Shown: positions 13,164 to 14,328 of the stretch, one piece after another
How positions within the stretch are numbered: position 1 is the stretch's first letter
How the letters are laid out: the number at the start of each line of letters is the position of its first letter
From: Candidatus Thorarchaeota archaeon
Lineage (GTDB): Archaea > Asgardarchaeota > Thorarchaeia > Thorarchaeales > Thorarchaeaceae
Assembly: GCA_016839605.1 (NCBI GenBank)
Contig: JAEOTX010000189.1
Span: 1-14,558 of the forward strand
Length of the DNA: 14,558 bases
Direction: 5' to 3'
Position numbers and translations under genes: made by a program
The notes under the pieces: generated by a model
The model's input: only the letters and a program-made list of their open reading frames with translations
The model's database searches: none
What the model was told of the DNA's origin: nothing

Positions 13164-13547
13164 ATGAAGATGATAGATGTCGACAGCGAGGCTAGAAAGA
13201 AGAGCAAAGCTCACTATTCTCCTGCAGTAGTACATGACGGGATTGTATACGTATCAGGTCAACTACCTATGGATCCAGAGAAAGGAAGGCCAGTTGAAGG
13301 AGGAATTGAAGAACATACTAGGGCTGCATTGCAGAGCTTATCCCAGGTGCTTGAGGCCGCAGGGAGTTCAAAGAAGAAGGTGTTGAGGACCACGGCCTAT
13401 ATTCCTGATGTGACGTTATGGGGCCAGGTGAATGAAATTTATGCCGAGTTCTTCGGAAAACATAGACCAGCAAGAACCGTTGTTCCAACCACTGAACTAC
13501 ACTATGGGTGCCTCATAGAGATCGATGCTGTCGCCTTCGTTGACTAG
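13164..13547 (+). CDS. RidA/YjgF/UK114 family enamine/imine deaminase
   Basis: HYSPAV, YVSGQLP, RPART (catalytic Arg present) and IEIDA motifs; GAGGAGTGA SD; starts 37 nt after the amidohydrolase stop. Confidence 0.92.
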   Translation: MKMIDVDSEARKKSKAHYSPAVVHDGIVYVSGQLPMDPEKGRPVEGGIEEHTRAALQSLSQVLEAAGSSKKKVLRTTAYIPDVTLWGQVNEIYAEFFGKHRPARTVVPTTELHYGCLIEIDAVAFVD

Positions 13548-13762: not shown

Positions 13763-13817
13763 GAAAAAGAAGATTGCCCTGTGCAATAGCATTCACATTA
13801 ATGCTGCATGCACAGGG
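13763..13817 (-). terminator. Long hairpin followed by a U-rich tract at the 3' end of the small basic protein gene
   Basis: CCCTGTGCA (13777-13785)/TGCACAGGG (13809-13817) with inner AGCATT/AATGCT, followed by TTCTTTTTC on the minus strand. Confidence 0.55.
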
Positions 13818-13856
13818 GTCTCATGCAAAACGATTCTGGCCGTAATGGAATCGCGG

Positions 13857-14069
13857 TTATCCCTTCACTTTCCTGTCCATATATGAGCCCAGACGCCGAT
13901 TGGAATTAATCCGCGGTGTCAACGCGATATAATCACGAAGTGGAAAATTAAGGGAGCTATGCCTAGCATCAATGATATCTGCAAAAGCAGCTGTATACCA
14001 TCTTAGTTCATTCTTGTTCATTTCACGTCTCACTTTGCGTTTTCGTTTTCGTGCTTCTCGAGCTGACAT
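13857..14069 (-). CDS. Small Arg/Lys-rich hypothetical protein (70 aa)
   Basis: GAGGAGG SD (14087-14081) lies 11 nt before ATG 14069 (MSAREARKRKRKVRRE...). The ORF-track start at 14186 falls inside the structured leader. Confidence 0.7.
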   Translation of the reverse strand: MSAREARKRKRKVRREMNKNELRWYTAAFADIIDARHSSLNFPLRDYIALTPRINSNRRLGSYMDRKVKG

Positions 14070-14100
14070 TTTTCCATTTTCCTCCTCGAGGACAGCACAC

Positions 14101-14268
14101 AAAAGACAGCTTATCGCCCCTGGCGTGTAACTGTCAATAGAGTCCTCTTCCCCGAGAGGACCGCAATCAGAAGAAGTCGACAACACGAGGAAGAGAGCTC
14201 TACATTAGTTCCCACTAATAAGCGGGAACCGATAGAGATGTGTGATATTTCCTCGTGGCATTTCTGTC
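14101..14268 (-). ncRNA. Candidate structured ncRNA or cis-regulatory leader (~170 nt, three hairpin domains)
   Basis: Nested stems of 5+9+5+10 bp, a second hairpin of 7-8 bp and a third hairpin followed by UUUU. G-U pairs form only on the minus strand, and TTTAAA at 14297-14292 lies about 24 nt upstream. Confidence 0.6.
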
Positions 14269-14328
14269 AGTGCAGCAAAAACGAATTCCGTTTTAAACTT
14301 TGATGTCTCTGTAACCATCAGATATGAT

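Follow-up and report, generated by a model that had tools for sequence, protein, structure and literature searches.

Organization of the locus

The window, that is, the whole stretch of DNA analysed (14,558 nt), spans the entire contig C127 of a Candidatus Thorarchaeota archaeon, and the gene upstream of the locus is therefore cut; in close relatives, this gene codes for a 363-aa winged-helix regulator. The locus lies on the minus strand, as do all the features described below unless otherwise indicated, and comprises a promoter, a structured leader RNA containing a short upstream open reading frame (uORF), a main ORF and a terminator-like hairpin.

The main ORF (13857–14069) codes for a 70-aa Arg/Lys-rich protein with an N-terminal helix; the product is basic and 58–97 aa long across homologs, with a pN/pS of 0.24 over codons 2–30. 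It belongs to no known family and did not show any informative match in Pfam (searched at E up to 1), NCBIfam, PDB or Atlas, nor did DUF1127 match it in Pfam at that threshold. The conserved start codon is ATG 14069 and not the start at 14186 named in the first-pass annotation; a 109-aa ORF beginning at that GTG was discarded because its frame is not conserved upstream of ATG 14069.

The unit is closed by a 3′ terminator-like hairpin and a CU/U tract (13764–13817), as deduced from folding and from the 3′ ends of homologs, where the ORF is followed by a hairpin at least as stable as −8 kcal/mol in 35 of 45 cases, with a pyrimidine tail in 24. The neighbouring genes differ among homologs and the distribution of the locus is patchy; these variable neighbours, together with the hairpin with a pyrimidine tail found after the ORF in most homologs, indicate a one-gene unit. 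In the window, a gene of the RidA/Ribonuc_L-PSP family (13164–13547, plus strand) is convergent with the small ORF and adjoins a peptidase-like gene, an arrangement kept in close relatives only.

From archaeal promoter spacing, transcription is predicted to start at 14268, 29 nt downstream of the first T in a TATA box (14291–14297; (C/T)TTA(A/T)A) whose distance is the same in 50 of 51 homologs. Sequence conservation begins at this same nucleotide, and the TTTAAA motif ends 24 nt before G14268, as initially proposed. Further upstream there is a conserved, loosely palindromic element, TAC-N6-GT(A/C) (14302–14313), which has diverged in this copy. It is situated 16 nt upstream of the TATA box, with T, A and C at positions −16 to −14 in 43, 39 and 41 of 46 sequences, respectively, and A at −9 in all 46; its palindromy is partial. 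Its location just 5′ of the BRE/TATA makes it a possible site for a transcription factor, such as an activator. Scanning the genome with a promoter matrix did not reveal a coherent regulon. The top match is in contig C61 of the same genome (minus strand, near 25716), ca. 250 nt upstream of an ORF that we take to resemble HMG-CoA synthase, and the intervening gap folds and holds short ORFs.

Distribution of the leader and its downstream gene

The element is single-copy in its own genome, which is 80 % complete. Searches by BLAST, and then with a covariance model, identified the full RNA in 36 of the 86 genomes of the family, from six genera, plus one additional copy truncated by a contig end. 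A profile of the downstream ORF recovered the same 36 genomes, so in all of them the full RNA is accompanied by the ORF (36/36), which does not support the earlier suggestion of a stand-alone non-coding RNA. Searches of other families of the phylum (151 and 301 genomes) gave no convincing case of either RNA or ORF, and the one RNA match outside the family is weak and partial (E = 0.003). Among 1.8 billion protein representatives, there are 16 relatives of the small protein; those that could be traced to long enough contigs carry the RNA, although in degenerate form in L099. What remains of the leader in this most distant homolog (L099:230–702, plus strand) is its 3′ half, together with the SD hairpin; the 5′ domain and the uORF have been lost, the ORF has a divergent tail and the locus is possibly decaying. 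Genome G004 has an additional, partial copy of the small ORF (L067:1330–1470, plus strand), which adjoins an N gap and is probably an assembly duplicate.

Logan RNA contigs from four runs of relatives cover parts of the leader and the ORF, three of them ending at 14213–14244 and one spanning 13832–14213; they carry no information on start, strand or level.

Secondary structure of the leader

All the stems listed in the first-pass annotation were found at their minus-strand positions, including four G-U pairs (two of them in the apical stem and one each in P1 and domain 2). The four nested stems of domain 1 were exactly reproduced when 14268–14165 was folded alone (−36.3 kcal/mol, z = −4.9), and the folding energy of the whole 220 nt was also far from that of shuffled sequences (z = −5.0), none of 200 shuffles being equally stable. 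Nevertheless, the minimum-energy fold of the whole stretch was unlike the fold first described, because 14196–14186 paired with 14154–14144; this alternative is examined below.

Four segments of the leader are relevant to its folding. Segment 1 (14249–14257) is the 5′ strand of P2 and corresponds to codons 2–4 of the uORF; 98.7 % of its alignment cells are paired among 28 homologs, and its GAGG is invariant. Segment 2 (14184–14196) can have as partner either segment 1, forming P2, or segment 4, forming an alternative helix. Segments 3 and 4 pair with each other in the hairpin of domain 2 (14141–14162), in which 96.9 % of the cells are paired and two pairs show compensatory changes; the part of this hairpin that can pair with segment 2 instead (14154–14144) consists of its loop and 3′ arm. 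The apical hairpin P3 (14207–14230) places the W/R codon opposite the stop codon, and its loop indels are of 3 nt; 80.5 % of its cells scored as paired, an underestimate, since two apical pairs (columns 53–54) were scored out of register. The primary sequence of unpaired segments of the leader is also conserved.

Towards the 3′ end, domain 3 (14105–14135) is an optional hairpin of variable sequence that, counted as present when it had 40 nt or more and folded below −8 kcal/mol, occurs in 33 of 51 homologs and is absent in several lineages. It is directly followed here by UUUU, as had been noted, but the reading of this run as a terminator did not hold: the four nearest relatives replace it, and only 12 of 51 homologs have it. 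Likewise, the proposed switch between the 5′ GACAG and CUGUC could not be maintained, since only 13 of 51 homologs have a P1 stem of −4 kcal/mol or better and domain 3 is present in only 33; the GACAG of P1 exists in the window copy and is not conserved among homologs. By contrast with these two proposals, the suggested covering of the GAGGAGG Shine-Dalgarno (SD) sequence by UCCUC was borne out, with a small anti-SD hairpin (14080–14092; −5.1 kcal/mol here) kept in 45 of 51 homologs.

The leader matched none of the RNA families searched, as anticipated. Rfam returned no matches at the gathering score, and at E up to 10 only chance matches beyond the element; its covariance models for riboswitches, T-box, SRP, RNase P, C/D and H/ACA RNAs did not match the leader, and ARAGORN found neither tRNA nor tmRNA.

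A near-leaderless uORF inside domain 1

Domain 1 is not purely non-coding, contrary to the original description, which had missed a conserved uORF of 18 codons plus UAA (14205–14261; MPRGNITHLYRFPLISGN). It is intact in all 51 distinct complete leaders, with 16–18 codons, the family consensus M(S/P)RG..YWF..S(G)N and a UAR stop (UAA in 23 and UAG in 20, shifted by one codon in 1). The AUG is located 33–39 nt after the TATA box and in frame with CGA-GGA in 51 of 51 leaders. With a predicted start at about 29–31 nt after the TATA box, the uORF would have a leader of ca. 3–8 nt (ca. 7 nt in the window), so we call it near-leaderless; the usual limit for leaderless mRNAs is set at 5 or 8 nt (PMC7531240).

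Length variation in the leader respects the reading frame. The internal distances of the uORF (3/6, 33/36/39 and 9/12 nt) are all multiples of three, whereas outside it distances vary by single bases, with 16–19 nt from the stop to segment 2 and 29–34 nt from segment 2 to domain 2. The tree requires at least four separate in-frame indel events, and one stop moved by one codon. Moreover, the six variable codons contain no stops, compared with ca. 9 expected from column frequencies, and of the two remaining sense frames, one is open in 25 and the other in 3 of the 51 leaders. These patterns show, from the comparison of homologs, that the uORF is under selection for its frame. Among the silent changes are the exchange of UAA and UAG and a change from CGA to AGA at the cost of a P2 pair. 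The pN/pS of the uORF is 0.57, and its pS is 0.09 versus 0.33 in the main ORF; this low synonymous variation shows selection at the RNA level. The peptide is loosely conserved, as expected of a frame selected for translation that overlaps an RNA structure.

The uORF is enriched in aromatic residues, with W, F and Y accounting for 5.6, 7.9 and 6.6 % of the residues, versus 1.3, 4.1 and 3.1 % in the genome. Three or more F/W/Y occur in 41 of the 44 distinct uORFs and at least one W in 40, while four have no Trp at all. The usual Trp was lost in five lineages, two of which include a member with a Trp further upstream (L104/L105 and L128), which might weakly suggest that this codon is selected for. 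Conservation of Trp is confounded, however, because in P3 UGG is opposite the C-U-A formed by the last codon and the stop, and structure plus frame alone could fix this codon.

At 14231 the window has CGG (Arg) instead of UGG (Trp), the codon found in most homologs, the four nearest relatives among them; one P3 pair is broken as a result, and the difference is either a strain variant or an assembly error.

Segment 2 has two mutually exclusive partners

An all-against-all scan of alignment columns recovered P2, P3 and domain 2 and, in addition, an 11-bp helix in which 14196–14186 pairs with 14154–14144; this helix excludes both P2 and domain 2. This alternative helix is paired in 98.0 % of the cells, versus 60–75 % in slid registers; shuffle controls alone were not significant (31–315 of 500), and the homologs are kin rather than independent sequences. 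Natural variants are informative in this respect: matched changes occur in L039/L040, L053, L113 and L024, a matched 1-nt deletion affects both strands of the helix in L064, and L062 retains the helix though it has lost domain 2. P2 is nearly invariant and shows no two-sided covariation. The alignment shows that segment 2 has two conserved partners, participating either in P2, with domain 2 formed, or in the alternative helix.

In the window, segment 2 begins 9 nt after the uORF stop. Since segment 1 comprises codons 2–4 and segment 2 lies just past the stop, the position of a ribosome on the uORF would decide which partner is free. We folded the 51 leaders with the ribosome footprint masked. 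In these equilibrium models, the mean probability of the alternative helix was highest with a ribosome on the start codon (0.87), followed by a ribosome at the W position (0.69) and by free RNA (0.44), and dropped to 0.09 with the ribosome at the stop. Free RNA is near-bistable (mean of 0.55 for P2). The models lose the alternative helix when the ribosome is at the uORF stop, and domain 2 then has a tendency to form. Pairing of the SD, by contrast, was nearly constant across ribosome states in these equilibrium models (0.69–0.83), and they consequently show no translational output. Release of the SD through pairing of segment 1 with the anti-SD was also considered and rejected: it appears in the window fold, but its mean probability was 0.26 in free RNA and below 0.1 with a ribosome on the uORF.

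A CU-rich tract (14169–14176) lies directly after the P1/P2 base, being at least 70 % pyrimidine in 48 of 51 homologs. Although it is no U-run, and a scan for sigma-70 promoters and terminators found no terminator-like site, it is a candidate site for premature termination or for FttA, which is encoded in the same genome. The pattern of a hairpin plus a CU tract in the leader resembles the small gene's own 3′ ends; domain 2 has no trailing U-run. Archaeal U-rich tracts function both with hairpins and in their absence, and together with aCPSF1/FttA (PMC13675443).

Similarity of the small protein to the N-terminus of a larger protein

Residues 1–50 of a 385-aa protein are similar to the small protein, with a per-genome E of 6e-6 and an HHalign probability of 89 %; in the reciprocal profile comparison, 16 of 49 real proteins scored at least 8 bits, versus none of 1029 controls. 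The gene for the larger protein (L057:2499–3656, plus strand; also L167–L178) adjoins genes for a PEP-utiliser mobile domain, PPDK_N and a ferredoxin. It is present in 33 of the 86 family genomes and has relatives in Methanomethylicaceae, and its predicted fold (pLDDT 65) gave no clear structural match. In genus g5, three genomes have both the small-protein locus and the 385-aa gene, 11 have only one, 11 only the other and three have neither; the two thus tend to be mutually exclusive in this genus, the genomes being non-independent kin and eight genomes holding both.

Comparison with known attenuators

Ribosome-mediated attenuation is a textbook device of bacteria. The thorarchaeal leader resembles trpL, pheL and hisL (Trp_leader, RF00513) in having a short uORF that overlaps segment 1 and carries candidate sensing codons, and in that the ribosome position picks between mutually exclusive helices, which here is a computed property. 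It differs in that it matches no Rfam leader model or sequence, in a relay of 1:2 / 2:4 / 3:4 pairings rather than 1:2 / 2:3 / 3:4, and in the absence of a U-run for a 3:4 terminator. Additionally, its uORF is near-leaderless, carries mixed single aromatic codons and does not precede a biosynthetic operon. In Bacillus subtilis, the rtpLP leader of rtpA (anti-TRAP) uses a Trp-codon leader peptide to control a small regulatory protein; our leader has no T-box, according to Rfam, nor tandem Trp codons, and its protein is unrelated. Polycysteine attenuators of mycobacteria begin with a leaderless sORF on which stalled ribosomes block a structure, with the downstream SD sequestered (10.1101/834739). 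The leaderless-type first ORF and the sequestered downstream SD are common to both systems, as would be the blocking of a structure by stalled ribosomes, but the present one is archaeal, has no homopolymeric codon run and does not show, in folding, a direct stall-driven release of the SD. Finally, a uORF of Sinorhizobium meliloti controls a DUF1127 gene by premature termination between them, with its first codons being regulatory (PMC12218461). The design proposed here has the same traits, but its protein has no DUF1127 match and its uORF is embedded in a long hairpin, to which a conserved alternative helix exists.

Another leader of the same family of genomes precedes trpB2 (L135:2790–3010, minus strand, in contig C126 of the same genome). 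Its uORF is SD-led, of 16–17 codons across the family and 16 here, with nearly invariant Q-W codons, and is embedded in a long hairpin (z = −4.4), after which comes a CU tract. Both leaders have a uORF within a long hairpin and a CU tract, the uORF of the small-protein leader having its Trp codon in most homologs, but they are not homologous (best score of 2.8 bits with covariance model R1), and that of trpB2 is SD-led and precedes an enzyme for Trp; its expected regulatory logic is that stalling turns expression on. A motif common to both, CUUCCUCG...GGGGAGAGG, was discarded as a post hoc pattern with two matches in the genome, kept within genus g1 only.

Proposed mechanism and alternatives

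We propose that the leader is a near-leaderless leader-peptide attenuator, that is, a ribosome-controlled switch for a small basic protein, with a probability of about 0.72–0.75. A ribosome on the start codon, or stalled at the Y-W-F codons, would favour the alternative helix. When charged aromatic tRNAs are plentiful, the ribosome would complete the uORF and depart, and the long hairpin would close before the CU tract; the transcript would then end early, by intrinsic or FttA-type termination, or remain blocked at the SD. Under aromatic shortage, the ribosome would stall and keep the hairpin open, the polymerase would read through, and the alternative helix would then lock P2 out, allowing the small protein to be made. 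Provided that the switch exists, termination is the output we tentatively prefer, and the CU tract its likeliest site because of the pyrimidine-rich tracts of 48 of 51 homologs, their similarity to the gene's 3′ ends, the presence of FttA and the archaeal termination at U tracts; access to the SD, in turn, is given a little less than an even chance. Domain 2 is downstream of the CU tract and would therefore act in the full-length RNA, so control of the SD or pausing of the polymerase may take part. The opposite sign, with stalling turning the gene off, is also possible.

As for the signal, and again conditional on the switch, a shortage of aromatic amino acids seems probable. EPSP synthase, prephenate dehydratase and a chorismate-binding domain were not found in the genome of this archaeon (80 % complete), and this negative result for three aromatic-pathway families, in an incomplete genome, makes such a shortage a plausible signal, even if nothing known connects the main gene with the metabolism of amino acids. 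General translation stress would be the less probable signal of the same switch. As an overall reading, a uORF that senses ribosome availability (initiation rate, antibiotics, drop-off), with the small protein being a stress or ribosome-associated factor, is a possible sub-case of the attenuator. An initiating ribosome covers segment 1, and in the folding models a ribosome on the start codon is enough for the alternative helix to form; Trp was dispensable in five lineages; and there is a bacterial parallel in the uORF that attenuates a small DUF1127 gene by ribosome availability (PMC12218461). However, aromatic enrichment survives the loss of W (Y-x-F here, FWY in L104), and N-W lineages carry Tyr/Phe in unpaired codons, which argues against this sub-case. 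More speculatively, and with considerable doubt, the small-protein and trpB2 leaders may both use a uORF-bearing hairpin and a CU tract as conditional terminators in a ribosome-sensed aromatic amino-acid regulon of Thorarchaeota, the 70-aa protein being a new starvation-response regulator possibly derived from the N-terminus of the 385-aa protein.

In the remaining readings, the uORF is not the sensor. The Arg-rich protein might bind a conformer of its own leader, in the style of Rev/RRE or ribosomal-protein leaders, with the uORF delivering ribosomes or setting the folding. The strict co-occurrence of RNA and ORF, the Arg/Lys-rich N-terminal helix and the unusual conservation of synonymous sites in the uORF are consistent with this, but autoregulation alone does not explain a frame-perfect uORF and the protein matched no RNA-binding family; although autoregulation can coexist with a leader-peptide attenuator, we consider it unlikely. 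A metabolite-binding riboswitch or a thermometer with an incidental uORF would agree with the near-bistable free RNA and the sequence conservation of unpaired segments, but is improbable given that all the conserved length changes of domain 1 keep the frame, that AUG and stop are universal and that Rfam found no match. Even more improbable is a stand-alone or trans-acting RNA ending at the UUUU of domain 3, or a toxin-antitoxin system in which an antisense RNA opposes the mRNA. A short attenuated transcript could indeed have a role of its own, like rnTrpL (PMC7968998), and the variable neighbours and patchy distribution of the unit would suit such elements; yet neither UUUU nor domain 3 is conserved, no full RNA was found that lacked the ORF, only 6 of 51 homologs share the place of an antisense TATA-like site, and the protein is basic, helical and hydrophilic, unlike a hydrophobic type I toxin.

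Significance of a probable leader-peptide attenuator in Thorarchaeota

The proposal of a new, conserved and switchable archaeal leader preceding a small protein is thus supported, with no corresponding Rfam family. The literature, within incomplete coverage, yielded no described case of an archaeal ribosome-mediated attenuator. A two-codon Met-Trp leader has reportedly been found for trpY of Methanothermobacter. Ribo-seq in archaea has reported uORFs without a mechanism (PMC11456600). The leader described here offers a fully specified and testable attenuator design in an archaeal lineage related to eukaryotes: its uORF is near-leaderless, its relay of three helices has compensatory variants in nature, and a tract is available as a candidate for termination. 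It is relevant to the question of whether premature termination in archaea is controlled by translation, and it draws attention to a small protein that has been kept behind this leader across six genera.
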